Sequence record: NZ_OX291535.1
Direction: 5' to 3' (one strand)
DNA from: a plasmid
Length of the DNA stretch: 12,879 bases
A program made the position numbers and the translations under genes. The stretch's first letter is position 1, and every line of letters starts with the position of its first letter. Under the pieces are notes generated by a model that was not told where the DNA came from, did no database searches, and saw nothing but the letters and a program-made list of their open reading frames with translations. Shown here one piece after another: positions 569 to 12,879 of this stretch.

Positions 569-1156
569 TTACTCCGGCGCTACCGCGTCGACCTTCTCAA
601 GGTGGCGGTAAATCGCGCTCCTGCTCAGATTTAACTGCTTGGCTATGGTGGCTATTGGTACCCCCATGGCGCGGCGCATGACTATCTCCCCCGCTTCTTT
701 CGCGCCGATCTTGGTCGGGCGTCCGAACTTCTGGCCACGGCTCTTTGCGGCCTCGATCCCTGCCGCCTGGCGTTCCAGTATGAGCTTGCGCTCCATCTGC
801 GCGAAACTCGCCATGATGCCGAGGACGGCCTGTCCGACGGCGCTGCTCAAATCGACACCCTCGCGGATGCTGACCAGGGTTACTTTTCGTTTCTCCAGCT
901 CCTCGACCAGTTCGAGGGCGTCCCGGGCGTTCCTGCCGATGCGGTCGATCGCGTAGATGACCAGCGTGTCGCCCTCCTGCAGGATCTGGTTCAGGAGGAT
1001 GCCGAGGGCTGGACGCTCGCGTGGTGGTACCGTCCCGCTGATCCCGTCGTCGGCGAGGATGGAGGCTGTTGGGAACCGGGCGATGATGGCGTCGCGCTGG
1101 CTGTTGCTGGTTTGTTCGTCGGTTGATACGCGAACGTAACCGTATGTTTTGCTCAC
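569..1156 (-). CDS. Serine recombinase of the resolvase/DNA-invertase family (Hin/Gin/TnpR-like)
   Basis: The N-terminal YGYVRVSTDEQ catalytic-serine motif is present. The core reads DTLVIYAIDRIGRN ... ASFAQMERKLILERQ. The C-terminal HTH is GVPIATIAKQLNLSRSAIYRHL. The preferred start is GTG at 1156, with a GAGGAGAG SD 6 nt upstream, giving 196 aa, which is typical for this family. The ATG at 1204 has no SD. Confidence 0.85.
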   Translation of the reverse strand: MSKTYGYVRVSTDEQTSNSQRDAIIARFPTASILADDGISGTVPPRERPALGILLNQILQEGDTLVIYAIDRIGRNARDALELVEELEKRKVTLVSIREGVDLSSAVGQAVLGIMASFAQMERKLILERQAAGIEAAKSRGQKFGRPTKIGAKEAGEIVMRRAMGVPIATIAKQLNLSRSAIYRHLEKVDAVAPE

Positions 1157-1415
1157 TTTTTTCTCTCCTCTGACCGATACGTCTCTTTCGACACAACATG
1201 CCACAACTGTACCGAAAGTCTATCGCTAAAGTGTCTATTTCGTCGCTTTGTCGGGTGTCCCGGAATGTAGGGGATTAGCGACGGCCTCCAGGCGGCTCTC
1301 CGCGCTGGGCGAGAGCCCTGCGCCCTCTGCGTTGATGTCTGCGCGGTGTCGTGACGGCATGCTGTCTGAGCGGCGTTTGCTGCCGCTTTGCTGATAACTT
1401 GCTGAGAACCAAACC

Positions 1416-2818: not shown

Positions 2819-2967
2819 GTTTGCCGTCTCGCGTCTGGTCATCCCTGAGGTGGTGATCCCTGACGGGGTTGTTGCTGCGCGAAAGGCCAGGGGGATCGCG
2901 CAACGTGTCGCAGCTGCTCGCCGTGCTGCTGAACGTCGTGCTGCGCCTACATGGTGCTGGGTGAGAC

Positions 2968-2992
2968 GGGGCGCGTTATGCGCCCTTTTTTT
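2968..2992 (+). terminator. Rho-independent terminator of the plus-strand operon: GGGCGC-gttat-GCGCCC followed by TTTTTTT
   Basis: GC stem 2969-2974 pairs with 2980-2985, and a 7-T run follows at 2986-2992. The TAA stop of the convergent minus-strand finO-like gene (2976-2978) lies in the hairpin loop. The complement of the T-run encodes that gene's last Lys codons. Confidence 0.6.
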
Positions 2993-3617
2993 CGCCCTTC
3001 GCCTGGCGTGCCTTGCGCCGGAATGCCTTGATCTCTGTCAGGCGGGCTTTGGCGTTTTCGGCCTCCTCCGGGGTTGCTGGTTCGGTGGGGTTGCCGTCCA
3101 GGTCGTAGCGCATGCACTGGTCGATGAGGCTCTGCTGGTACGAGCTCGTACCCGTGACAATGCCCAGGATGCGACGGACGGCTTTGCGGTCTGCCTCTGG
3201 CGGCATGTTCAGCTCTGCGCCTCGGGTCAGGATCTGCTCGATGATGCCCTTTGCCATGGGGCGACGGTCAACTCCCCGGGTCAGCAAGTCAGGCCAGTGC
3301 TCTTTCAGGAATGCTTTGGTCACCCGGTTGGCCAGCGCCTTTTTGGACTTGTTGGCGATCGCGATGTCCTGCTGGCGGCGGTCGTTCTCCTCCTGTCTGC
3401 GGATCCCCTCGGCGACCTGTTCAGGCGTCTTTTTCGGCTTTGCCGCTGTGGGCTTCTGTGCGGGCTTCTGCGGGGCTTTCGCTTTTGGCTGTACCTTCGC
3501 CTTGCTGGTAGTCCGTTCGGCTGGCTGCGGCTCAGATTTCGCGGCCTTTTCCGGCGGGACGTAGACCGTGCGGTTGCGTCGCTTGATGGTCAGGATCGGA
3601 CGGGTGGTTTCGGTCAT
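2976..3617 (-). CDS. FinO/ProQ-family RNA chaperone-like protein, 213 aa, with a Lys/Pro/Ala-rich basic N-terminal region
   Basis: MTETTRPILTIKRR... resembles the FinO N-terminus MTEQKRPVLTLKRK. ...KKALANRVTKAFLKEHWPDLLT and ...RKAVRRILGIVTGTSSYQQSLIDQCMRYDLDGNPTEP... parallel FinO regions from memory. The ATG at 3617 overlaps the upstream gene's TGA in an ATGA arrangement. The in-frame extension up to 4076 is Arg/Pro-rich junk. Confidence 0.6.
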   Translation of the reverse strand: MTETTRPILTIKRRNRTVYVPPEKAAKSEPQPAERTTSKAKVQPKAKAPQKPAQKPTAAKPKKTPEQVAEGIRRQEENDRRQQDIAIANKSKKALANRVTKAFLKEHWPDLLTRGVDRRPMAKGIIEQILTRGAELNMPPEADRKAVRRILGIVTGTSSYQQSLIDQCMRYDLDGNPTEPATPEEAENAKARLTEIKAFRRKARQAKGEKKGA

Positions 3618-4945
3618 AAATCTCTCTCTGGTCGGTTGGTCCGGATGTGGTCGGCAAGGGCGATCAGGGTGGCGGCGTCGCCGCGGTTCCGATCGATGCG
3701 CCGGATGATGTCGTTGATGTAGTCCCAGCGCCCGACGGCGGCAAGGACGGAAAGGGCGAGGCGGTTGAACCGGCTCTCTGGTACCCGGTCGAGGGTCAGG
3801 GGGATGCGCTTGCGGGGGCGTCCTGGACCGCGCCCTGTCCCTGGTCTTTTGAGCAGCTGCGGCTGCTCCCCCTGCGGCAAAATAACGGGGATCTTCGCCA
3901 GGCTGCGCGTCTCGTTCTGCGCGAACTCGGGCACCGCGATGTGCTCGTCTGTCCATGTCCTGCCTCCGGGCCTGGCTGATGCGCTGGAGTCGCAGGACGG
4001 GCAGGAGACGACGATCTCCCGTCGCGGCTTGCCCTTGACCGGTGCCTTGCTGATCACCAGGGGCGCGGCTTTGCAATCAGCGCAGACCGACGATGTCCAG
4101 ACCGCGTTGTCTGGCAGGGTGGCGTTCCGGTACTGGTGCGCGGCGTCATGCGGTGTCTGGAAGCTGACCGTCTGAAACGTGGGGGCGACGCTGAGAGGTG
4201 CCGCCCATGGCTGGCACCTGGGACAAGCAAGCTCCACCTCTCCGGCGTGCCCGTCGCCACCGTTCCAGCGCAGGGGCTCGCGGTGTTCGGGGCAGTAGTA
4301 CACGAAACCGTCGCGGCGTGTTTGCCCGACCGGGCCTGGTCGGCGATCGTGGAACCGTGCGCCCGGGTTGGCTCGCATGGCGCGGACGAGCGCCTCGCCC
4401 TGGTGGATGCCGTACCAGACCTGCCAGCCATCGCCGATGCCGATCAGGAACGGCGAGACGAACGGTGGGGTGCGGTTGACTCTCCCGCGTGCGTTGGCTC
4501 CGATGGTGGCTTCGCGTTCGCGGTTCCAGCAGGAGACGCACAGGCTCGAACCGGGCTTATTGGGGGCGATCAGGCGGTTGTCTTTCCGGCTGCAACGGGG
4601 GCAGAGCTTACGGGTGTCTGCCGGGGTGGTCAGTGGTGCGTCAGGGGGCTGTTCGGTACCGACCCAAAGCGCGAGGCCAGTGGGGCACCGGTGGCACTCG
4701 AGGTGGGGGTTTTCAATCGTGCGATCGAGGTGGCTCTGCTCATAAATCTGTCGGCATGCCTCGACCCGGAGGGAGCACCCGCCGGGGCAGGTGACGAACA
4801 AAACGCCGGGCATGATGTCGGGGAACCGCTCCGCAGCGCCTACGCACTTCAGTGCCTCGGTTGACGGCTGCGTCGCTTCTGTCGTGTCGTTATCGTCGTT
4901 CACTGCTCCCCCTGCGTCGAAATGGTCGCCAGACCTCGCCAGCAC
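3614..4945 (-). CDS. Cys-rich multi-zinc-ribbon protein, up to 443 aa; the C-terminus carries the AT-hook-like stretch GRGPGRPRKR; function unknown
   Basis: Seven CxxC/CxxxC pairs: CPGGC, CHRC, CPRC, CVSC, CPRC, CADC, CPSC. They are spaced as about three zinc ribbons. The ORF is long with the same codon bias as its neighbours. The GTG at 4945 lacks an SD, so the true start may be internal (for example the GTG at residue 15 or the ATG at residue 45). The stop overlaps the finO-like start. Confidence 0.55.
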   Translation of the reverse strand: MLARSGDHFDAGGAVNDDNDTTEATQPSTEALKCVGAAERFPDIMPGVLFVTCPGGCSLRVEACRQIYEQSHLDRTIENPHLECHRCPTGLALWVGTEQPPDAPLTTPADTRKLCPRCSRKDNRLIAPNKPGSSLCVSCWNREREATIGANARGRVNRTPPFVSPFLIGIGDGWQVWYGIHQGEALVRAMRANPGARFHDRRPGPVGQTRRDGFVYYCPEHREPLRWNGGDGHAGEVELACPRCQPWAAPLSVAPTFQTVSFQTPHDAAHQYRNATLPDNAVWTSSVCADCKAAPLVISKAPVKGKPRREIVVSCPSCDSSASARPGGRTWTDEHIAVPEFAQNETRSLAKIPVILPQGEQPQLLKRPGTGRGPGRPRKRIPLTLDRVPESRFNRLALSVLAAVGRWDYINDIIRRIDRNRGDAATLIALADHIRTNRPERDL

Positions 4946-4977
4946 TGGCTGTGCGTCTTTTTTAGTATCTCACAAAA

Positions 4978-4994
4978 AACGCCACTTTGGCGTT
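4978..4994. promoter_or_regulatory. Perfect 7-bp inverted repeat AACGCCA-ctt-TGGCGTT in the divergent promoter region. On the minus strand it is followed by a T-run.
   Basis: Seen directly. On the minus strand the hairpin is followed by TTTTTT (complement of the A-run 4974-4979), about 30 nt upstream of the zinc-ribbon gene start. It could be an operator, an attenuator, or the 3' end of a small minus-strand transcript. Confidence 0.35.
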
Positions 4995-5258
4995 AATTGT
5001 GTTAAGCTTGTCTTACTGATTCCTGACGAGCAGTTGGGAAACATGAAACCGGATCGCCCGGTGCCGCTTTCCCTCCTCCCCAACGAGGCGGGGTTGTAAA
5101 CGAGGATGCGCGCTTCGTCCTTGGCAGGTGCGAGTAAGCGAGAAGGGCTGCTGTCCTGCCGCTATGCGGTAAGTCCTCAAGGGCGGCTTTATCGATAATC
5201 GTCACTCCCGCCCCCCGATGCCCGTTAAGCTGAGGGGGGCACCTATCTGGTACTCCCA

Positions 5259-5468
5259 ATGAAAAAACGAATCTATACCGCTGACCTCGCTGCGCTGCTG
5301 AACGTGTCGCTGCGCACGCTCTCCCGCCTGAGTTCGCGGGGGATCGTTCCGACTCCGGCAGGGCGTTCCCTTCGTGGCGGGCATTACTGGCTGGCTGGGG
5401 ATCCCGTGCTCAAACGCTTTATTGCCGACCAGCGTCGTCCCGGGAGGGCTCCTTATGGCGTTCGATAA
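5259..5468 (+). CDS. AlpA/excisionase-family HTH DNA-binding regulator, 69 aa
   Basis: RIYTADLAALLNVSLRTLSRLSSRGIVPTP...GGHYW fits the AlpA pattern of a phage regulatory or Xis-like winged HTH. The 3' end overlaps the next gene by 14 nt. No obvious SD. Confidence 0.55.
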   Translation: MKKRIYTADLAALLNVSLRTLSRLSSRGIVPTPAGRSLRGGHYWLAGDPVLKRFIADQRRPGRAPYGVR

Positions 5469-6636
5469 CTCTCACCTGACTGACGCTGGCCTGTTCTGGC
5501 GTGCCGTCTCTGCGGCTGGGGCTCCGGTTGACCGCGAGGACTGGCTGCGCCTCTGTTCTGGCATCGCATGCTGGGCATCTCTCTGCGGAGAGGACGGGCT
5601 TGCTGCTATCGAGGCCTGGTCTACCCGCCACAATCGCGGATCTGCGCATCACCGGTCGCAGTACCGGCACTTCCTGAAGCTGAAAGGCGTAACCAATCCC
5701 GAGGCCATGGCGCAAGTATTCCTGCGGTTCTCAGGCGAGGTGTACTGGCGGCTCGACTCAAATCGCACGCCGCCGTCGACTGAACAGGTTGCTGCTCTTG
5801 CTGAACGGAAACGCCGATCGATCGAGGCGGTGGCCAGACGCGAAGATGCCGACCGGCGCAAGGCCGATAAGGCTGCGGCTGATGCGGTCAGGATGCTGGC
5901 GAAAGGCGACGGTAATCCGGCCTATACCCCGTACTGGCGCAATAAGACCACAATCGCCAGGCGTGGTGGCGTCAGCCTCCCGCCCCTCCCCGCTGACCTT
6001 CGTGTGGGTGGCTTGTTCCGCTCGTTCGAACCGAGGGCGTACTGGTCGCGCTGTCTGCTTGTTCCTGCCTATCGCCTGACCGATGATCGCCAGCTGGTTG
6101 GCGACGCGCTGGAGGCCATCTGCGGCGTCTGCTCTGCTGGCGGCAAAACCGGCGACAAGTTCTCCCCTGCAGGTACCCAAAAGGCGGGACGGTTCTATCC
6201 GATGCCCGGCTTTATGGACGTGCTCGATACCTCACCACATGCGCCCTACTCGCCTCTGTTCGTCTGTGAGGGGTTCGCCACGGCGGTTGCCCTGCATCAT
6301 CTGACGAAGGGCAAGGTGGCAGTCTGCGCGGCGTTCTCAATTGCCGGGTTCGGCAGCTGCGTGGCGTCGCTGCGCCGGTTCTGGCCAGATGTTGATGTGA
6401 TGCTGGTACCGGATCACGGCGAAGCGTACCGCCTGGCGCATAAAGCGGCCTATGGCGATGAGCGAGAGCCGGTCCCGACAATTCCAGGCGCGGCGGTTGT
6501 GTCGTTCGACGGCCTCGATCGCTTCACGCCCCGGGATAACCTCGACTGGTTCGACGTGCTGGTTGAGGAAGGGGAAGATCGGGCTCGTGAGCTGCTGCGC
6601 TACGCGGTTCGTCATGCCCGGCTTGAGCGGCGTTGA
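5455..6636 (+). CDS. Phage P4-alpha-like DNA primase with a TOPRIM domain, 393 aa
   Basis: The ATG at 5455 is preceded by a GGGAGGG SD. The TOPRIM-like motif PLFVCEGFATAVAL matches the EGYATG type of P4-family primases. MLVPDHGE is the second acidic motif. The N-terminal region WLRLCSGIACWASLCGEDGLAAIEAWS is PriCT-like. The first 27 codons of the track ORF are rejected. Confidence 0.55.
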   Translation: MAFDNSHLTDAGLFWRAVSAAGAPVDREDWLRLCSGIACWASLCGEDGLAAIEAWSTRHNRGSAHHRSQYRHFLKLKGVTNPEAMAQVFLRFSGEVYWRLDSNRTPPSTEQVAALAERKRRSIEAVARREDADRRKADKAAADAVRMLAKGDGNPAYTPYWRNKTTIARRGGVSLPPLPADLRVGGLFRSFEPRAYWSRCLLVPAYRLTDDRQLVGDALEAICGVCSAGGKTGDKFSPAGTQKAGRFYPMPGFMDVLDTSPHAPYSPLFVCEGFATAVALHHLTKGKVAVCAAFSIAGFGSCVASLRRFWPDVDVMLVPDHGEAYRLAHKAAYGDEREPVPTIPGAAVVSFDGLDRFTPRDNLDWFDVLVEEGEDRARELLRYAVRHARLERR

Positions 6637-7320: not shown

Positions 7321-7528
7321 GGGCTCGATCCTCGATCAGCTGGAGTGGGAAGGGCGACTGATCGAGGAGGCCATGGCGACGGAACTGCGGGGCGACCCGG
7401 TGCGCTGCGACCACCTTGCTGCGGCGCGGTTATGGCTGGAGTGTGTTGACCGGGCGTCTGATGACAGGTGGCGGGCGTTCTGCCTCGCCAGCTATGAATG
7501 GTGCGTATTCGTCGCAGTAGAACTCTGA
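7304..7528 (+). CDS. Hypothetical small protein, 74 aa from the ATG at 7304 (17-nt overlap) or 51 aa from the ATG at 7373
   Basis: ORF in the +1 frame overlapping the previous gene's end. The internal ATG at 7373 has an AGGAGG but only 2-nt spacing. Weak evidence overall. Confidence 0.3.
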   Translation: MGRRRRGSILDQLEWEGRLIEEAMATELRGDPVRCDHLAAARLWLECVDRASDDRWRAFCLASYEWCVFVAVEL

Positions 7529-7574
7529 CCGGCGGCGGCGTTGAGCCGTCGCTCCTCTGCGTGAAGCATCGATG

Positions 7575-8159
7575 TTAAGAGTTATTTAACTTCTTTATGA
7601 TCGCTGCGCCAAGCTGCCGAGTATTCATTTCATTTCCATTGCTATTTAGCAATGATATTTTTAAATCATGCGCAACATCACGTAGAAATGGCTTCACAAT
7701 AGTTACAGGCATGCCATTTCTTTGAACTGAAATACCGCCACTAAAAGTGCGACTGATTGTATAATCATTCCACTGCACACTTTCAGCCGCTCCTGGCAAG
7801 TCAGGAACCTCCTGGACAGTGAAAACCGCACGAACAATCCCTTTTTCCTTCCATCCACGCAAATACCCACTCCAAATATTTGCCCGAACTGATGATTCTT
7901 CTGAAATCGCACGAGCATTCCATACTCCAGTTTCACAGGAACCATCCCTTTTAAACATTTCGACTTTGGCCTGTTTTGATTTTAGTAACGCTTTTTTAAA
8001 ATCCGCTTCACCTTCAGGATTAAAAAAAAGTTCAGGGCGTGTGTCATGATCGATTTCAACAACATCGATCAGACGGTTTATTACCTGTTCGGGAGTTTCA
8101 AATCCCTTTGCTTGTGCAGCAAGACGGCTATATGTAGCGTCAGATATCGTAATATCCAT
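7575..8159 (-). CDS. Hypothetical protein, 194 aa, in the AT-rich cargo island. The N-terminus DITISDATYSRLAAQAKGFETPEQVINRLIDVV looks ribbon-helix-helix-like. A C-terminal domain of about 150 aa is unknown.
   Basis: Preferred start is the ATG at 8159, with a TAGAGGT SD 6 nt upstream. The track ORF starts 7 codons earlier. Codon usage is AT-rich and clearly unlike the flanking genes. Confidence 0.6.
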   Translation of the reverse strand: MDITISDATYSRLAAQAKGFETPEQVINRLIDVVEIDHDTRPELFFNPEGEADFKKALLKSKQAKVEMFKRDGSCETGVWNARAISEESSVRANIWSGYLRGWKEKGIVRAVFTVQEVPDLPGAAESVQWNDYTISRTFSGGISVQRNGMPVTIVKPFLRDVAHDLKISLLNSNGNEMNTRQLGAAIIKKLNNS

Positions 8160-8198
8160 CAAAGTACCTCTATAGATCAAAAATTAATCATAAAATTA

Positions 8199-8227
8199 AT
8201 CATAATTGATAAATTTAATGATTTCAA
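8199..8227 (-). promoter_or_regulatory. Sigma70-like promoter for the island gene 7575..8159: -35 TTGAAA (8227-8222), 17-bp spacer, -10 TATGAT (8204-8199)
   Basis: Read from the complement. The -10 lies in a tandem 12-bp repeat AAATTAATCATA x2 (8181-8204). The repeat gives a second TATGAT 12 bp downstream. The start codon is about 40 nt further on. Confidence 0.4.
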
Positions 8228-8605
8228 GATCTATAATTACCTGATATCGCAATATGGTTAACCGCCTCTAAAGAGCTATAAAAACCTGTAAACCCGCTCC
8301 TCGTGCCGCTTGGTTATAAACAAACCAGTTGAATCTACGTCAACAATAGCCTACTATTGTTGTACTGCAAGAGCATTCGCAGGGGGTATTAACCAGTAAT
8401 TAACCCTTTGCGCTGGGCAGTCAGGAGGCTGGTCTCCTGTTGGGAAGTTATGTTGCGGCTTCCTAGTAATAACAGTGAATTTGATAGACAGCAGAAAACC
8501 GCCGATGCTGCTAGATCCGAAAGGAACCAATGAAGGGAAATATTTAGGCGTTATGGTTCATTCTCATTAAATTGAGGAGAATTGCTTAAATGGGCGTCCT
8601 TCCTA

Positions 8606-9097
8606 TCACCCTCGCTGTATAGCTTTACATTTGGCCTCCGTTGCATGGTATGCAGTCACGGGGGCCAAATTATTTTCAGAGACATCAACTATCGCCATTG
8701 CGAAAAAGCCAGCCCCAGCAACGTTAATGCGACGAACAGCATTGAGCACAATAGTCTGCTCCGAGTAATCTCTGTTAACGTACACATTGCTCTGCACTGA
8801 GAATGCAGTTGCCAAAATCTCCGCACACTCTTGCCAACTTAGCTTATCCTTCGAGTTACGAGCAGATAGCACATGCCTAAACATTGCCCAAGTGATCGGT
8901 ATTGCTGGTGATGCAGGTATGTCCCAGCCGTTTCTCTGACAAACAACTTTCATTTGATTGAACTGCTTCTTAGTCATCAGATAGGTAAAACAAGGCGTCT
9001 CCCAAACTTCCTGAGGGAGACCTTTATCATCCATTTCTTCAGCTTGCTGTGTAAAAGCATAGAAAGCGTCACGGATAGCATCATCACCGATAGCCAC
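8606..9097 (-). CDS. Hypothetical protein, 163 aa, in the AT-rich cargo island
   Basis: GTG start at 9097 with an AAGGA SD 6 nt upstream. AT-rich codon usage. No recognisable motifs. Confidence 0.55.
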   Translation of the reverse strand: MAIGDDAIRDAFYAFTQQAEEMDDKGLPQEVWETPCFTYLMTKKQFNQMKVVCQRNGWDIPASPAIPITWAMFRHVLSARNSKDKLSWQECAEILATAFSVQSNVYVNRDYSEQTIVLNAVRRINVAGAGFFAMAIVDVSENNLAPVTAYHATEAKCKAIQRG

Positions 9098-9161
9098 TTC
9101 TTTTCCTTGTAAAATTTTTATGTTCGAATTTTATCATATTTAGCTATGTCACTTAGGACTG

Positions 9162-9653
9162 CTAATTCAGTAGCCCACTTTCCCGCAACTTATGGCGATA
9201 GTCCCGGACACGGCTGGTGTTCCACTCCTGTCCCGTCGCTGTCCGGTGCCCTGCTGCGTTCAGTGCCGACGCGATGGCGGGCAGAGTCGCGTTCTCTGCG
9301 GTCATGCTGACAATGAGCTGGTCAGCCTCATCACTGACGGCCTGGAAGCGCGGATCGGCTCCCCGGGGGACTATCTGTCTTGCAGGTTGTTGTGCGCTTT
9401 GTGGTGCTGTTTGTTGTGCGGTTTGTCGTGCAGGTTTACCGCCGACGGACAGCGCCCTGACTTCAGCCCTCAGCGCTTCGATGGCAGCTAAAAGTTTGGT
9501 GTCCATCCCTTCCGGCTTCGTGCCAAGTCCGGCGTTCAGCGCCTCTATGACAGCATCCGTGCGGGTTGCTCCGGTTCGTGCTGCGTTCTGCTCGATGCGT
9601 TCGATCAGGCTAACGGGTAGGCGAACGGTCAGGGTTTTGGTTTTCTCTCTCAT
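9162..9653 (-). CDS. DNA-binding regulator, 164 aa. N-terminal ribbon-helix-helix (CopG/Arc-like). Gln/Ala-rich repeat linker. C-terminal recombinase-type HTH (LNAAGHRTATGQEWNTSRVRDY).
   Basis: The RHH signature is KTLTVRLPVSLIERIEQNAARTGATRTDAVIEAL. I prefer the ATG at 9653, with a GGAGAG SD 8 nt upstream. The track's 50-codon N-terminal extension is low-complexity translation of the upstream DNA repeats. The C-terminal G.W..S.V motif resembles the recombinase-domain HTH of large serine recombinases. Confidence 0.55.
   Translation of the reverse strand: MREKTKTLTVRLPVSLIERIEQNAARTGATRTDAVIEALNAGLGTKPEGMDTKLLAAIEALRAEVRALSVGGKPARQTAQQTAPQSAQQPARQIVPRGADPRFQAVSDEADQLIVSMTAENATLPAIASALNAAGHRTATGQEWNTSRVRDYRHKLRESGLLN
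9390..9430. repeat. Four phased copies (11-12 bp period) of GT(T/C/G)GTGC inside the RHH gene. They encode its QTAQQTAPQSAQQPARQ linker.
   Basis: GTTGTGC at 9390, GTGGTGC at 9401, GTTGTGC at 9413 and GTCGTGC at 9424, read directly. Confidence 0.6.
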
Positions 9654-9669
9654 GGCTGCTGCTCTCCAC

Positions 9670-9756
9670 GTCGTGCGTTTTGTCGTGCTGTTTGTCTTGC
9701 GTAGTGTAATGCGTTTTGTCGTGCGCGTCGAATTCGACGTCGTGCAGTTGTCGTGC
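9670..9756. repeat. Six copies of the GTCGTGC (TTTGTCGTGC) motif at -17 to -103 upstream of the RHH gene start. They flank the 14-bp perfect palindrome CGTCGAATTCGACG (9726-9739). Likely an operator or iteron array.
   Basis: Copies start at 9670, 9682, 9694 (GTCTTGC variant), 9718, 9739 and 9750. The same core motif recurs in the coding linker. The stem-loop GGCGACG-gctttg-CGTCGCC at 9765-9784 follows. Confidence 0.55.
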
Positions 9757-9946
9757 ACAGAGGGGCGACGGCTTTGCGTCGCCGGGGTGCCGTTTGTGTA
9801 CATGGATAAATAGCAGAGGCGGCGCAGAGATTGAGCTGGGCGTGATCACGACAGCGCGATAAGTGCGCGGCGCTAAGTGGCGTGGAGGGTTGGGATCGGG
9901 TAAGCTGATCTGGCGTCTGCGGATCCGGTTGGGGATCTTCGGGCAC

Positions 9947-9980
9947 AAAAAAAGGCGACCTGTTGGGTGGTCACCTTTTT
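9947..9980. terminator. Bidirectional terminator-like hairpin: A7-GGCGACC-tgttgggt-GGTCACC-T5, with one C/A mismatch
   Basis: A-run 9947-9953, stem 9954-9960 pairing with 9969-9975, T-run 9976-9980. It can terminate both strands. It sits in the 530-bp spacer between the RHH promoter and the helicase gene. Confidence 0.45.
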
Positions 9981-10180: not shown

Positions 10181-11476
10181 GTGTCACAAATTGATGAAAA
10201 TTCCGGCACTGCTGCCGACAACGTAACGCCGATCGCCGCTGCCAAGGTGGGACGCCCGTCTCTACAAAAAAAATACCCGACTACCGCGTTTCCCGTGGAG
10301 CTGGAGATCAACTACCGGAAGGGGCGCTACTCGTCCTCTCTTGAGAACGTTGTCGCCGCTATGCGCTGCCATTCCGTCACCGGCATCCAGCTCGCTTTCG
10401 ATGAGTTCTTTGCGGAGGAGGGGGCGTTCGTGAACGGGCAATGGTACCCGCTGTCCGACAACCTAGTTACCGAGCTGCGTCTGCGCCTCGCTGCTGCCGA
10501 CTTCGAGAAGGTGACCAAGGACAATGCCCGCGACGCCATGTTCTACGTCTGCGATGAGAACAAATTCGACAGCGCCCAGCGTTGGCTGACGGCTCAGGAA
10601 TGGGACGGCAAACCTCGCGTCAGTTACTTCTTCGAGCGGTGCTTCAAATGCCAAGGGGATCCCGAGTACCTGGCGGCGGTCAGCCTCTACACCTGGACGG
10701 CGCTTGCCGGGCGCGTAATGAATCCCGGAATCAAGGCCGACATGGTTCCGCTGCTGTACGGGCGACAGGGTGCCCGCAAATCGACGGGCGTTCGCCTTAT
10801 GTCGCCATTCCCTGACTCCTACTCCAGCTTCAACCTGAACGACAAGGACGACTCCCTAGTGCGCCGTATGCGTGGGTGCCTGATTGGCGAGCTGGAGGAG
10901 CTGCGCGGCCTCCACGGGCGCGACTCCGAATCGGTGAAAGCGTTCTTCTCCGCTGCCCACGACGAGTGGGTGCCGAAATTTAAAGAGTTCAAGGTGCGAA
11001 ACCCGCGCCGCGTGGTGTTCATCGGTACCACGAACAACAAGCAGATCCTCAATGACTCGACGGGGAACCGCCGCTATTTGCCCATGAATTCCGGGGACGT
11101 GGACTGCGCGGCCATCGAGAAAAACCGCTCGCAGCTGTGGGCTGAAGCGCTCCACCTGTTCAATGAGAATGGGGTGATGTGGGAGGCCGCTGAAACGCTG
11201 GCGCGTAAGGTGCATGACGAGTTCCGCGTCGAGGATCCGTGGGAAGACGAGATCGCCGAGCTGCTCAAGCTGGACGTTGACGACTGCGACCCGACTGCTT
11301 TCGTGCCGACGAAGGCCTTGTTCTCTCAGGTAGGGCTCATGATTGGCCATACCAGCAACAAGCAGCATCAGCGCATGGCGGCTATCATGTCCCGATTGGG
11401 CTATGAGGTTGGCAGGAAGCGCATAAACGGTGCGTTAGTTCGTGGCTACTTCCGTCGAACGCAAGCTGTCGTGTAA
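10181..11476 (+). CDS. VirE / D5-family (superfamily-3-like) P-loop NTPase helicase, Rep-like replication initiator of the P4-alpha C-terminal or PICI Rep type; 431 aa
   Basis: GTG start with an AAGGAG SD 8 nt upstream. The Walker-A-like motif is LLYGRQGARKST. Downstream reads VVFIGTTNN...GNRRYLPM, which is VirE-family-like. An iteron/AT-rich origin follows immediately 3' of it, as in pri-rep-ori modules of phage satellites. Confidence 0.6.
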   Translation: MSQIDENSGTAADNVTPIAAAKVGRPSLQKKYPTTAFPVELEINYRKGRYSSSLENVVAAMRCHSVTGIQLAFDEFFAEEGAFVNGQWYPLSDNLVTELRLRLAAADFEKVTKDNARDAMFYVCDENKFDSAQRWLTAQEWDGKPRVSYFFERCFKCQGDPEYLAAVSLYTWTALAGRVMNPGIKADMVPLLYGRQGARKSTGVRLMSPFPDSYSSFNLNDKDDSLVRRMRGCLIGELEELRGLHGRDSESVKAFFSAAHDEWVPKFKEFKVRNPRRVVFIGTTNNKQILNDSTGNRRYLPMNSGDVDCAAIEKNRSQLWAEALHLFNENGVMWEAAETLARKVHDEFRVEDPWEDEIAELLKLDVDDCDPTAFVPTKALFSQVGLMIGHTSNKQHQRMAAIMSRLGYEVGRKRINGALVRGYFRRTQAVV

Positions 11477-11495
11477 GGGTTACTTTTCCGTAAGA

Positions 11496-11521
11496 GGGGA
11501 GCTATATGCTCCCCTTTTTTA
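11496..11521 (+). terminator. Strong rho-independent terminator: GGGGAGC-tatat-GCTCCCC followed by TTTTTTATT
   Basis: Perfect 7-bp GC stem with a 5-nt loop and T6. It lies 20 nt after the helicase stop. Confidence 0.8.
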
Positions 11522-11900
11522 TTGTTCCACCCGGGTGGATCACGGGTGGATCATCACGCCGTTTTTGTACCACCTGTTCCACCCGGGTGTTCCACCCGTT
11601 CCACCCGTGTTCCGCCCGTGGATGGAACAGCTAAGGCCTCGTGTTTAAAGGCTTTCATTGTTGTGTTCCACCCGTTCCACCCTATTTTCTAATTAAAAAC
11701 AAAAAATGAATAAATTGGGTAAATAGGGGGTAAATGCTCACTAATTGAACAATTAGTTGTTTTTTTTACTATTTATGAATCTATGCCGGATCGGGTGGAA
11801 CGGGTGGATCATCTTGGAATCGACGCGCCGCAGCTGCACCCTGCCGGATGCACTTTGCTTGTCTTATTAGATCGGTGGATGGGTTCGTCGTGCCGGGATG
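11521..11900. repeat. Putative replication origin. About 7 direct TTCCACCC(G) iterons (11525-11683), an AT-rich segment of about 100 bp (11683-11786), then inverted GGGTGGA(A/T)C copies (11531-11553, 11791-11810 and degenerate ones to about 11900).
   Basis: Read directly. Plus-orientation copies start at 11525, 11576, 11589, 11598, 11609 (variant), 11667 and 11676. Inverted copies (CGGGTGGATCA/CGGGTGGAAC) are at 11531, 11543, 11791 and 11801. The 14-bp palindrome TCCACCCGGGTGGA is at 11526-11539. The AT-rich core contains GGGTAAAT x2. This is the same architecture as SaPI/PICI ori. It also resembles the P4 ori/crr iterons TGTTCACC. Confidence 0.6.
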
Positions 11901-12098
11901 GTCGGTGGTAGTGGTTCTGAGGGGGATCGGAGGTTTGGGTGGCGCTGAGGGCACGAGGCTTTCGCCTCGCGCTGGGTGGTCGTCTGTTGGTTCTGCGTGA
12001 GGGCTTGCCCTCGCGCACGCGAGCGGTAACAACTCGTTAACGTGCGGATCCGCGTATTTCGCGGGCTCCCGGGTTTTCTGCGGCGGTAAAGCGGCGGT

Positions 12099-12122
12099 AA
12101 AAGGCGGTTTTCCCGCCGTTTT
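12099..12122 (-). terminator. Weak terminator for the minus-strand HTH gene: GGCGG-ttttc-CCGCC with only 4-nt T/A runs on either side; overlaps the stop codon
   Basis: Stem 12103-12107 pairs with 12113-12117. It is preceded by a tandem GCGGCGGTAAA x2 (12081-12102). Confidence 0.3.
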
Positions 12123-12589
12123 CAGCTCTGTTGGCGATTCATGCCCTCGCGCATGATGTCGGCCTCGGTGCCTGGCTTGATCTCGTAGATGACGCGCTCG
12201 CGTTCCTGCGTCTTGAGTAGGGATGTCATAAGGCCGCTGATCGCTTTGACCATGGTGGCGTCCTTCTCCAGCATGGCCTGTAGCGAAGCTGTGCGGAGGG
12301 CTTGCAGGTCGGTGGCGTGGCGCTGTAGCAGCTCAAACTGGCGCTGTACAAAGTGGTTTTTTAGGCGTCGGATCGCTGCCTGTGGGGTGGCCTCGACGGC
12401 TCGCTGTGCGCGTTCGCGCATCTCCTCGATGCTGAGGACGTTGCTGGGTGCGTCGGTGCGGGCTTTCGCCCAATCTCTGACGGTGCGGGGTGGGATCCCC
12501 ATGGTGCGTGCGACGGTGGCTGCGGTTGCGCCGTCCTGCTCCAGTAGTCTGAGCGCCTGGGCTTTCTGCTCGGTGGTGTATTTCTTCAT
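12122..12589 (-). CDS. HTH-domain protein, 155 aa. The N-terminus resembles the IS3-OrfA or small-terminase-type HTH (QKAQALRLLEQDGATAATVARTMGIPPRTVRDWAKA). The helical C-terminus is unknown.
   Basis: ATG at 12589 with a GGAG 9 nt upstream. Good codon bias. Family assignment is uncertain. Confidence 0.5.
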   Translation of the reverse strand: MKKYTTEQKAQALRLLEQDGATAATVARTMGIPPRTVRDWAKARTDAPSNVLSIEEMRERAQRAVEATPQAAIRRLKNHFVQRQFELLQRHATDLQALRTASLQAMLEKDATMVKAISGLMTSLLKTQERERVIYEIKPGTEADIMREGMNRQQS

Positions 12590-12787
12590 GGTGTCCTGCT
12601 CCGGTTGGTTTCTCTCCTGTATTGAAACGTCACGCGCTGAAAATGGCGGGGGTTTTTGGGGGGTACACGGCGTTTGTGCGTGCGTGGTCGTGCGGTTGGG
12701 TATTTTTGTGGCTGAGGCGCTTAGAATGGCTCTGGTGCGTTCTGGGTAAGGGAGGAGGCGCAGCAGTCGCTGCGCTCCTAGCTGGGG

Positions 12788-12879
12788 TTAGCGCCAGCGT
12801 TCGAGGCGGTACCTGACGGTGATCCCGTCCTCCGTCATGGTATGGATGTACTCCTGGTTTGCCACGGTGCGGTCGATGG
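12788..12879 (-). CDS. C-terminal end (...IDRTVANQEYIHTMTEDGITVRYRLERWR*) of a gene that enters from the right edge
   Basis: Open frame to the window edge with GC3-rich codons. The TAA stop is at 12790-12788. Not in the track because it is partial. Confidence 0.3.
   Translation of the reverse strand, partial: IDRTVANQEYIHTMTEDGITVRYRLERWR

Follow-up and report, generated by a model that had tools for sequence, protein, structure and literature searches.

In this study we analyzed a plasmid sequence of 12,879 nt (record NZ_OX291535.1; hereafter the window) in which a repeat-rich segment lies directly 3' of a gene for a VapE-like superfamily 3 (SF3) helicase. We suggest with good confidence that this segment, 11524-11810, is the vegetative origin of the plasmid, that it is specifically recognized by the helicase encoded just upstream, and that the two form a rep-ori unit of the type found in phage-inducible chromosomal islands (PICIs) and Staphylococcus aureus pathogenicity islands (SaPIs). 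In total, this proposal builds on (i) the anatomy of the segment, (ii) the homology of the helicase to a proven initiator helicase, (iii) the linkage between repeat word and helicase among related plasmids, and (iv) the absence of any other known replicon from the molecule.

An iteron array around an AT-rich block

The exact heptamer GGGTGGA/TCCACCC occurs ten times in the window, each time within 11526-11808, against a chance expectation of 1.57 and a maximum of 7 in dinucleotide-preserving shuffles, none of which (0/200) reached ten. When the motif is extended to the 10-mer GTTCCACCCG and up to two mismatches are allowed, 13 copies are found in 11524-11810 (eight on the + strand and five on the - strand), and the remaining 14 matches are scattered over the rest of the plasmid at chance level. 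The start-to-start spacing of the iterons is 8-24 bp (8, 11, 24, 9, 13, 9, 11 and 10), with 8-13 bp within runs. In a 300-nt sliding scan no other place on the molecule had more than five copies of any 7-mer; the runner-up, with five copies at 9651-9950, is a different 12-nt repeat at the gene for a ribbon-helix-helix (RHH) protein.

A first-pass annotation of this DNA had described at least seven direct repeats on one side of an AT-rich segment of about 100 bp, at least four inverted copies distributed over both sides, and a position directly downstream of the helicase gene, and all of this is borne out. Six exact + strand copies of TTCCACCC (11525, 11577, 11590, 11599, 11666 and 11675) and one copy with a single mismatch, TTCCGCCC at 11610, all lie to the left of the AT-rich block, which at 105 bp has the expected length. 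Inverted copies of GGGTGGA(A/T) lie on the left at 11533 and 11544, accompanied by a degenerate GGATGGAA at 11620, and on the right at 11793 and 11802. The stop codon of the PF05272 gene ends at 11476 and the first iteron starts 48 nt later, at 11524, after a terminator-like hairpin. The extent of the element has to be corrected: it had been drawn as far as 11900, whereas it ends at about 11810-11821, and 11822-11900 is backbone common to plasmids with unrelated helicases and repeats. The annotation had also read the arrangement as a PICI-type origin, with iterons and AT-rich DNA 3' of rep. This agrees on each point with the published anatomy of SaPI and PICI origins, in which iterons immediately downstream of rep surround a central AT-rich region with at least two oppositely oriented iterons per side (PMC9371898; for an E. 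coli PICI, PMC6092414).

The proximal pairs on the two sides of the block amount to a 22-nt inverted repeat, one arm of which is 11790-11811; the arms are 91% complementary and 104 nt apart (Table 1). Two of the degenerate copies in the distal array are perfect in the related plasmid pSCZE1. Within the block the least stable 50-bp window is 11683-11732, with a dG of -55.2 kcal/mol compared to a plasmid mean of -76.2 (standard deviation 6.0). The order of gene, terminator and repeats recurs in pYe4449-2, pEC8-4, pF2021-2 and pSYM9 and in the alpha/crr region of P4; the number of predicted terminators over 11300-12879 is at chance level, the hairpin at 11492 nonetheless being in the expected place. 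Searches for the DnaA-box and integration host factor (IHF) consensus found nothing at the origin, the sole DnaA-box match being at 9048, and this fits a start that is independent of host initiators, as for the SaPI Reps. A sigma-70 promoter scan of 11300-12879 found none.

Table 1. Coordinates of the proposed origin, of its candidate initiator and of other features of the window
Feature	Position	Strand	Remarks
VapE-like SF3 helicase-initiator gene (predicted)	10181-11476	+	431 aa; N-terminal domain, ATPase core ~121-345, C-terminal winged helix ~374-425
Terminator-like hairpin and T-run	11492-11521 (hairpin 11492-11518)	+	11 pairs, 6 of them G-C; would end transcription of the helicase gene ahead of the repeats
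Distal iteron array	11524-11628	mixed (6 +, 3 -)	9 copies of G(T/A)TCCACCCG, including degenerate copies at 11567, 11609 and 11619
Spacer	between distal array and proximal left pair		36 bp
Proximal left iteron pair, GTTCCACCCGTTCCACCCT	11665-11683	+	9-bp spacing; abuts the AT-rich block
AT-rich block (proposed unwinding region)	11683-11787		105 bp, 76% AT (plasmid 41%); A/T tracts
Proximal right iteron pair, CGGGTGGAACGGGTGGATC	11792-11810	-	inverted partner of 11665-11683; last helicase-specific sequence before the common backbone
Backbone hairpin, GACGCGCCGCAGCTGCACCC-TGCC-GGATGCACTTTGC (stem also written GCAGCTGCACCC-TGCC-GGATGCAC)	11822-11860	+	followed by T-rich DNA; outside the helicase-specific element
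Toprim-like, primase-like protein	5455-6636	+	393 aa; possible priming partner
Serine resolvase	569-1204		window open reading frame
RHH protein	9162-9803	-	window open reading frame
Helix-turn-helix (HTH) protein, transposase-N-like	12122-12589		window open reading frame; right of the origin

The helicase is a homologue of SaPI1 Rep1

The helicase matches the Pfam family VapE-like_dom (PF05272) with E=9e-51 and, in PHROG, a 'DNA helicase' family as well as primase-helicase families. By phmmer, its nearest solved relative is 7PDS (E=5e-25), the complex of SaPI1 Rep1 with DNA (PMC9371898). An AlphaFold2 model based on 62 homologues has a mean predicted local distance difference test score (pLDDT) of 89.5, and the C-terminal domain (residues 374-425) is modelled with a pLDDT above 90 as strand-helix-helix-strand-strand, i.e. 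as a winged helix. In a Foldseek search of the PDB with this model, six 7PDS chains come first (E 1.8e-24 to 1.3e-20, template modelling score 0.70-0.75 over the full length), followed by NrS-1, poxvirus D5/E5 and SaPI5 primase-helicases. The sequence identity to SaPI1 Rep1 is only about 20%. Sequence and predicted fold together make the VapE protein a homologue, over its whole length, of the self-loading initiator helicase SaPI1 Rep1. SaPI Reps are initiators as well as helicases and recognize their iterons by the C-terminal winged helix (PMC9371898). Binding and melting of ori by Rep and the sufficiency of rep-ori have been demonstrated for SaPIs and EcCICFT073 (PMC9371898, PMC6092414), and in experiments a rep-ori segment of an E. 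coli PICI drove the replication of a plasmid (PMC6092414).

On genome contigs, the majority of the homologues with about 40% identity are proteins of about 700-750 aa in which the helicase is fused to prim-pol (PF09250/PF08707) or Toprim/zinc-ribbon (PF13362/PF08273) domains, and the helicase-only form of 431 aa is a minority arrangement among them. Cyanobacterial CyRepA was discounted as a characterized relative because its domains, DUF3854 and DEXDc, do not include VapE.

The primase-like protein matches PHROG 2249, 'DNA primase', with E=2e-19 over positions 36-325, in the N-terminal part of the 802-position profile; the helicase aligns with positions 506-767, in the C-terminal part of this profile. 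By BLASTP, the primase-like protein resembles the Toprim region of a fused Arsenophonus protein (E=8e-7) and the Toprim region of P4 alpha (E=2e-5). Its match to Pfam Toprim_3 is below threshold (E=0.075), no Pfam or NCBIfam name was obtained above threshold, and a sequence search of the PDB was empty. Within 5259-6636, a small open reading frame (ORF) overlaps the start of this gene and has a weak match to HTH_17 (AlpA/excisionase-like; E=0.0018, below threshold); the two together resemble the alpA-pri arrangement of Gram-negative PICIs.

A complete plasmid with one candidate initiator

The window is near-identical to the 12,931-bp circular Citrobacter freundii plasmid NZ_OW969907.1, and the two ends of the window (12879|1) are adjacent to each other in that plasmid; therefore, the window represents a complete circle. 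It is likewise near-identical to the backbone of p41A21031_A_KPC (NZ_OQ821212.1), which is the same plasmid with an inserted Tn4401/KPC-3, and its close relatives are C. freundii and E. coli plasmids. The plasmid received no replicon type from MOB-suite, which classed it as non-mobilizable. In addition to the resolvase, RHH, HTH, VapE-domain and primase-like proteins, the window ORFs include a ProQ/FinO protein. Pfam detected no Rep_3, RepA or other known type of initiator in these ORFs, and the Rfam gathering scan of the whole window returned no RNA family. Because the circle is complete and without a replicon type, and no other known Rep or Rfam RNA was found on it, the helicase gene is the only candidate for the initiator.

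The annotation had proposed a self-replicating satellite or a plasmid-like replicon, and of these the plasmid holds and the satellite does not. On the complete circle we found neither a tyrosine integrase nor terS- or capsid-related matches; no repressor/derepression module and no packaging genes were found on the plasmid, a scan of the window for tRNA genes that could provide an att-type context found none, and a megablast of the window against a phage collection gave no match. Among 5,426 complete E. coli genomes, 14 have the rep-ori, at 19 places that are all on plasmids, with none on a chromosome. A PICI as a whole element integrates by means of an integrase at a specific attC and has a master repressor as well as phage-dependent induction and packaging functions. 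The lack of integrase, terS and capsid hits together with the plasmid-only occurrence in E. coli indicates that the element is not a PICI and that only its replicon is PICI-like. We read the element as a plasmid, neither a satellite nor a member of the P4 family.

The repeat word tracks the helicase

A tblastn search found VapE homologues on 96 plasmids, and the 3' flanks were inspected in relatives of falling identity. The E. coli plasmids pLAO97 and pSCZE1, with helicases 98-99% identical to that of the window, have the repeat word of the window. Other words follow the helicases of pYe4449-2 (Yersinia; 74%, GTGACA-type), pArsFIN15 (Arsenophonus; 52%, GCGACACC), pE76_003 (Enterobacter; 40%, TGTAACCACC), pKNA06 (Komagataeibacter; 28%, GGTGGCA), pEC8-4 (E. 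coli; 27%, GTGTGGGGGTA) and pF2021-2 (Citrobacter; 26%, GGGTTAG). Each of the nine plasmid loci, the window included, has a private 7-mer, with 7-16 copies in the 650 nt that follow the stop codon and at most one in the remaining 4-12 kb; the copies lie in both orientations around a 60-mer of 70-90% AT, and the 7-mer differs with the protein. In pF2021-2, from C. freundii, the iterons at 3580-3850 (GGGTTAG/CCCTAACC, 16 copies, including runs of CCCTAA) spell the vertebrate telomere word.

In a wider sample of 80 loci from species-representative genomes, 64 had enough flank to be scored by the best exact 7-mer per 300-nt window. The median copy number of the best 7-mer was five downstream of the helicase gene compared to two upstream and two in coding sequence. 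At least five copies were present in 34/64 downstream flanks, in 0/58 upstream flanks and in 1/64 coding controls, this one being an artefact of a truncated match, and the best downstream window begins nearly always at the stop codon.

Plasmids in which parts of the molecule have different histories separate the helicase from its neighbors. Compared to the window, pEC8-4 has a resolvase of 97%, an HTH protein of 88%, an RHH protein of 86% and a primase-like protein of 84% identity but a helicase of 27%, and its word is unrelated. Conversely, pSCZE1 has a helicase of 99% but an RHH protein of 30% and a primase-like protein of 32% identity, with no resolvase or HTH match within the 5.3 kb fetched, and its word is the same. 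In pSYM9 the same backbone carries a DUF927-type helicase with a Rop-family ORF, and 13 copies of CTGGTTCCA occupy the same slot. In these sequence comparisons the repeat word tracks the helicase and not the resolvase, the RHH protein, the HTH protein or the primase-like protein. Thus, the first reading of the repeats as a Rep-binding motif gains a likely partner, the comparative data pointing to the helicase and not to other proteins of the plasmid.

Within the helicase, the C-terminal domain may be the part that follows the word. The C-terminal domain is identical between plasmids that share a word, whereas between the window and pYe4449-2, with its different word, the identity is 84% for the ATPase core but only 50% for the C-terminal domain. 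Over 703 locus pairs, C-terminal domains of same-word pairs are nine points more similar than core identity predicts (Mann-Whitney p=5e-4), an excess that is indicative only as the pairs are not independent.

Between plasmids that share the backbone, homology ends about 62-67 nt into the helicase gene (about codon 22) and resumes at 11822. The exchanged unit is approximately 10248-11821 and its only non-coding DNA is 11477-11821, so a helicase-specific cis site must lie there. On balance we lean, if only slightly, towards a joint proposal in which the helicase body and the origin would constitute one cassette that is exchanged at fixed junctions on a common backbone, from codon ~22 to just past the last inverted iteron, and in which the plasmids would constitute an unclassified family of 10-15 kb enterobacterial plasmids that rely for replication solely on a self-loading SF3 helicase of the satellite type and its private iteron origin. 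The plasmids concerned come from Citrobacter, E. coli, Klebsiella, Enterobacter and Yersinia, one of them with Tn4401/KPC-3, and at least five specificities are found on the backbone, i.e. TTCCACCC, GTGACA, GTGTGGGGGTA, GGGTTAG and CTGGTTCCA, the last with the DUF927 helicase. If this proposal is correct, cassette exchange likely switches incompatibility while the rest of the plasmid is kept.

A model for initiation

Combining homology with comparative linkage, we infer the function of the segment and a scheme for initiation, including binding, melting, the direction of replication, the route of priming and the role of the distal array. We suggest that the C-terminal winged helix of the helicase binds the G(T/A)TCCACCCG iterons and that the inverted pairs 11665-11683 and 11792-11810 would place two hexamers face to face across the 105-bp AT block. 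The block would then melt and each ring would load itself on single-stranded DNA without DnaA or a helicase loader. Priming could be carried out by the Toprim-like protein or by a host primase, host DnaG being an equally good candidate because the primase-like protein varies independently of the helicase, and a host polymerase would complete replication. The distal array 11524-11628 probably raises the local concentration of the initiator or alternatively functions in copy control or incompatibility, which is a guess.

Alternative explanations

Several observations weigh against the origin reading or leave it without added support. The AT block ranks only second in AT-richness and is only the third least stable on the plasmid, and therefore AT-richness alone is not diagnostic; the other AT-rich stretches, 8176-8255 and 9090-9169, are inside a cargo region of low GC at 7500-9150. 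The GC skew adds no independent evidence, as the cumulative skew climbs almost monotonically and the local change of sign at the site simply mirrors how the iterons are oriented. The primase-like protein and the helicase do not vary together. About half of the distant loci surveyed are below the threshold of five exact copies, and the origins of the window, pLAO97 and pSCZE1 are 94% alike, too similar to distinguish constraint on the iterons from that on the spacers.

One alternative, which we consider unlikely, is that the helicase binds the repeats but that these function only in cis control (as in P4 crr, or by handcuffing, titration or incompatibility) and that replication initiates elsewhere. 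The iterons that directly follow alpha in P4 are indeed those of crr, and the mapped ori is 4.5 kb away; however, P4 has type-1 iterons at both sites and the complete circle analyzed here has no second iteron cluster. The distal array, with its mixed orientation and without an adjoining AT block, does resemble a control array more than a loading site, whereas the inverted pairs around the AT block have the loading geometry of SaPIs and PICIs. Similarly, AT-rich DNA for a start elsewhere is present at 8176-8255 and 9090-9169, but these stretches sit in the low-GC cargo region, and an initiation site specific to the helicase has to move together with the swapped cassette, of which 11477-11821 is the only non-coding DNA. 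It is very improbable that the repeats instead serve another protein of the plasmid, as a res site of the resolvase, a centromere or operator of the RHH protein or an operator of the HTH protein. The plasmid does encode all three proteins. RHH and ParG-like proteins typically target short tandem repeats; yet in pEC8-4 these proteins are 97% (resolvase), 86% (RHH) and 88% (HTH) identical to those of the window next to a wholly different word, and pSCZE1 has the same word with an RHH protein of 30% identity and no HTH match in the fetched 5.3 kb. Moreover, the RHH gene has 12-nt repeats of its own at 9670-9725, and no ParA was found among the window ORFs.

Even less credible is a reading of the region as a small ORF (11442-11648 or 11522-11692), as a structured RNA or as non-functional repeats generated by slippage. 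Two ORFs called mechanically overlap the array, but the spacings of 8-24 bp keep no reading frame and neither of the two close records has a RefSeq gene at this place. In single-stranded form the region of the inverted pairs folds well (z = -4.8), a fold that consists of the inverted iteron pairs themselves, and Rfam finds nothing; neutral expansion would not yield one architecture that recurs, with differing words, downstream of homologues in different phyla. The least probable explanation, which the annotation had itself named as the competing one, is that the repeats serve as arm-type sites for an integrase beside an att core or mark the end of an integrative satellite. This would be in line with the arm repeats of P4 attP near crr and with the chromosomal location of many helicase relatives, but neither a tyrosine integrase nor a tRNA gene was found on the circle, 19/19 places in the E. 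coli genomes are on plasmids and 0 on chromosomes, and the word tracks the helicase. We therefore favor the reading of 11524-11810 as the origin recognized by the VapE-like helicase.

Other features of the plasmid

The backbone hairpin at 11822-11860 coincides with the right-hand junction of the exchangeable cassette. It is found beside different iteron sets in pEC8-4 and pSYM9, with compensating changes in stem and loop, and is inverted in pF2021-2. It could be a terminator, a recombination site or a single-strand initiation site (ssi). Next to it, 11860-12121 is a conserved non-coding stretch of the backbone between the origin and the HTH gene, with hairpins CGAGGCTTTCGCCTCG (~11953-11968) and GAGGGCTTGCCCTC (~11999-12012) and, just 3' of the HTH gene, two tandem copies of GCGGCGGTAAA at 12080-12101. 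At the place matching 12080-12101, pEC8-4 and pSYM9 have GGTCA-type repeats (GGTCACA/GGTCAT), and the relative L001 has 74 extra bp at 12013-12016. This stretch might be an auxiliary site or resemble an origin of transfer (oriT).

The RHH gene has two 12-nt tandem arrays in and upstream of it, TTGTTGTGCGGT x4.2 at 9387-9437 and GTCGTGCGTTTT x4.7 at 9670-9725. If the RHH protein starts at M51, as in one RefSeq record, the array at 9670-9725 would be upstream of the gene, operator-like and in the divergent promoter region of the RHH and helicase genes; an RHH gene is divergent from the helicase gene in pSCZE1 and pF2021-2 too. The segment 7500-9150 is low in GC (40-45% compared to ~60% elsewhere) and contains two ORFs without known function. 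The ORF 8606-9097 encodes a protein of 163 aa that is 98% identical to one of pYe4449-2 from Yersinia, whereas the helicases are only 74% identical, which suggests recently shared cargo. A second mosaic block is 2960-5065, comprising the ProQ/FinO gene and a gene for a 443-aa Cys-rich protein without a family match; it is 75-81% identical to the relatives L001 and L002, to which the remainder of the plasmid is 98-100% identical.

Implications

The design described here is already known from SaPIs, PICIs and P4; the instance is new and involves no new mechanism. A literature search with the plasmid names and with VapE, plasmid and iterons, which did not cover the original pYe4449 paper, returned genome announcements and unrelated papers and no description of the replicon. 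Because p41A21031_A_KPC shares the backbone of the window, a carbapenemase plasmid depends on an untyped replicon. The proposed origin and initiator are testable, for this KPC-3 carrier and for the other plasmids that MOB-suite leaves untyped, and would allow replicon typing, incompatibility tests and the construction of minimal vectors. We suggest that plasmids of Enterobacteriaceae use a satellite-type design, a self-loading helicase beside its own iterons, as a replicon in its own right, and that helicase and origin would travel together as an exchangeable specificity cassette. Of the by-products of the analysis, the most interesting is the exchange of cassettes, for which at least five helicase/iteron specificities are seen, and five words on one backbone provide a ready natural system for the re-targeting of a winged helix to its DNA word.

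Comparison with known replication systems

The closest parallels are SaPIs and PICIs (SaPI1, SaPIbov1, SaPI5 and EcCICFT073). As in these islands, the SF3 helicase is homologous to Rep and has a predicted C-terminal winged helix, the proposed ori follows right after the rep ORF (stop 11476, first iteron 11524), the pairs 11665/11674 (+) and 11792/11801 (-) flank a central AT-rich block, the iteron word appears to be specific to each Rep allele, and DnaA boxes are lacking. In contrast to them, the element is a free plasmid without integrase, repressor/derepression or packaging genes, its iterons are 8-10 nt (5-6 nt in SaPIs and PICIs) and number 13 with an extra distal array, and its primase-like gene is 3.5 kb off, neither adjacent nor fused and not co-varying with rep.

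The likeness to the ori/crr octamers of P4, to which the annotation had pointed, stands for position and micro-architecture but not for family membership. In the P4 record the alpha gene is followed by a terminator and by crr with ten type-1 octamers in both orientations around A-rich DNA, and the mapped ori, with six more octamers, is 4.5 kb from crr. The window likewise has a gene, a rho-independent terminator and iterons of about 8 nt in both orientations around A/T-rich DNA, i.e. it has iterons at the position of crr; the words are similar (TGTTCACC in P4 and TGTTCCACC in the window), and the primase-like protein resembles the Toprim region of alpha. However, the octamer TGTTCACC itself has no copy in the window, the plasmid has a single cluster instead of two iteron sites 4.5 kb apart, and alpha is a fused primase-helicase-winged-helix protein whereas primase and helicase are separate proteins here. 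P4 alpha was rejected as a homologue of the helicase, BLASTP finding no detectable similarity (E=1.2).

In classical iteron theta plasmids with initiators of the Rep_3/RepA/pi/TrfA type, such as pPS10, F, R6K and RK2, a WH1-WH2 Rep recruits DnaB, the direct iterons are 17-22 nt and one or more DnaA boxes lie by the unwinding element. The window plasmid shares with these a plasmid-encoded candidate initiator, repeated sites that it is predicted to bind beside an AT-rich element, and iterons that likely set incompatibility. Unlike them, the putative initiator is itself an SF3 replicative helicase, a Rep_3-type protein was not detected, the iterons measure 8-10 nt and run in both directions, and there is no DnaA box at the ori. 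In the archaeal plasmid pRN1, the origin is located directly 3' of the ORF904 gene, after a terminator, and is a stem-loop without iterons (PMC4234260). The primase function also differs, being of the prim-pol type in pRN1 and Toprim-like in the window plasmid. The two plasmids nevertheless agree in an origin, proposed in the case of the window, that lies after a terminator 3' of a gene for an SF3 helicase with a C-terminal winged helix (prim-pol/SF3/winged helix in ORF904), and the inverted pairs of the window could pair as a stem around a loop of ~100 nt.

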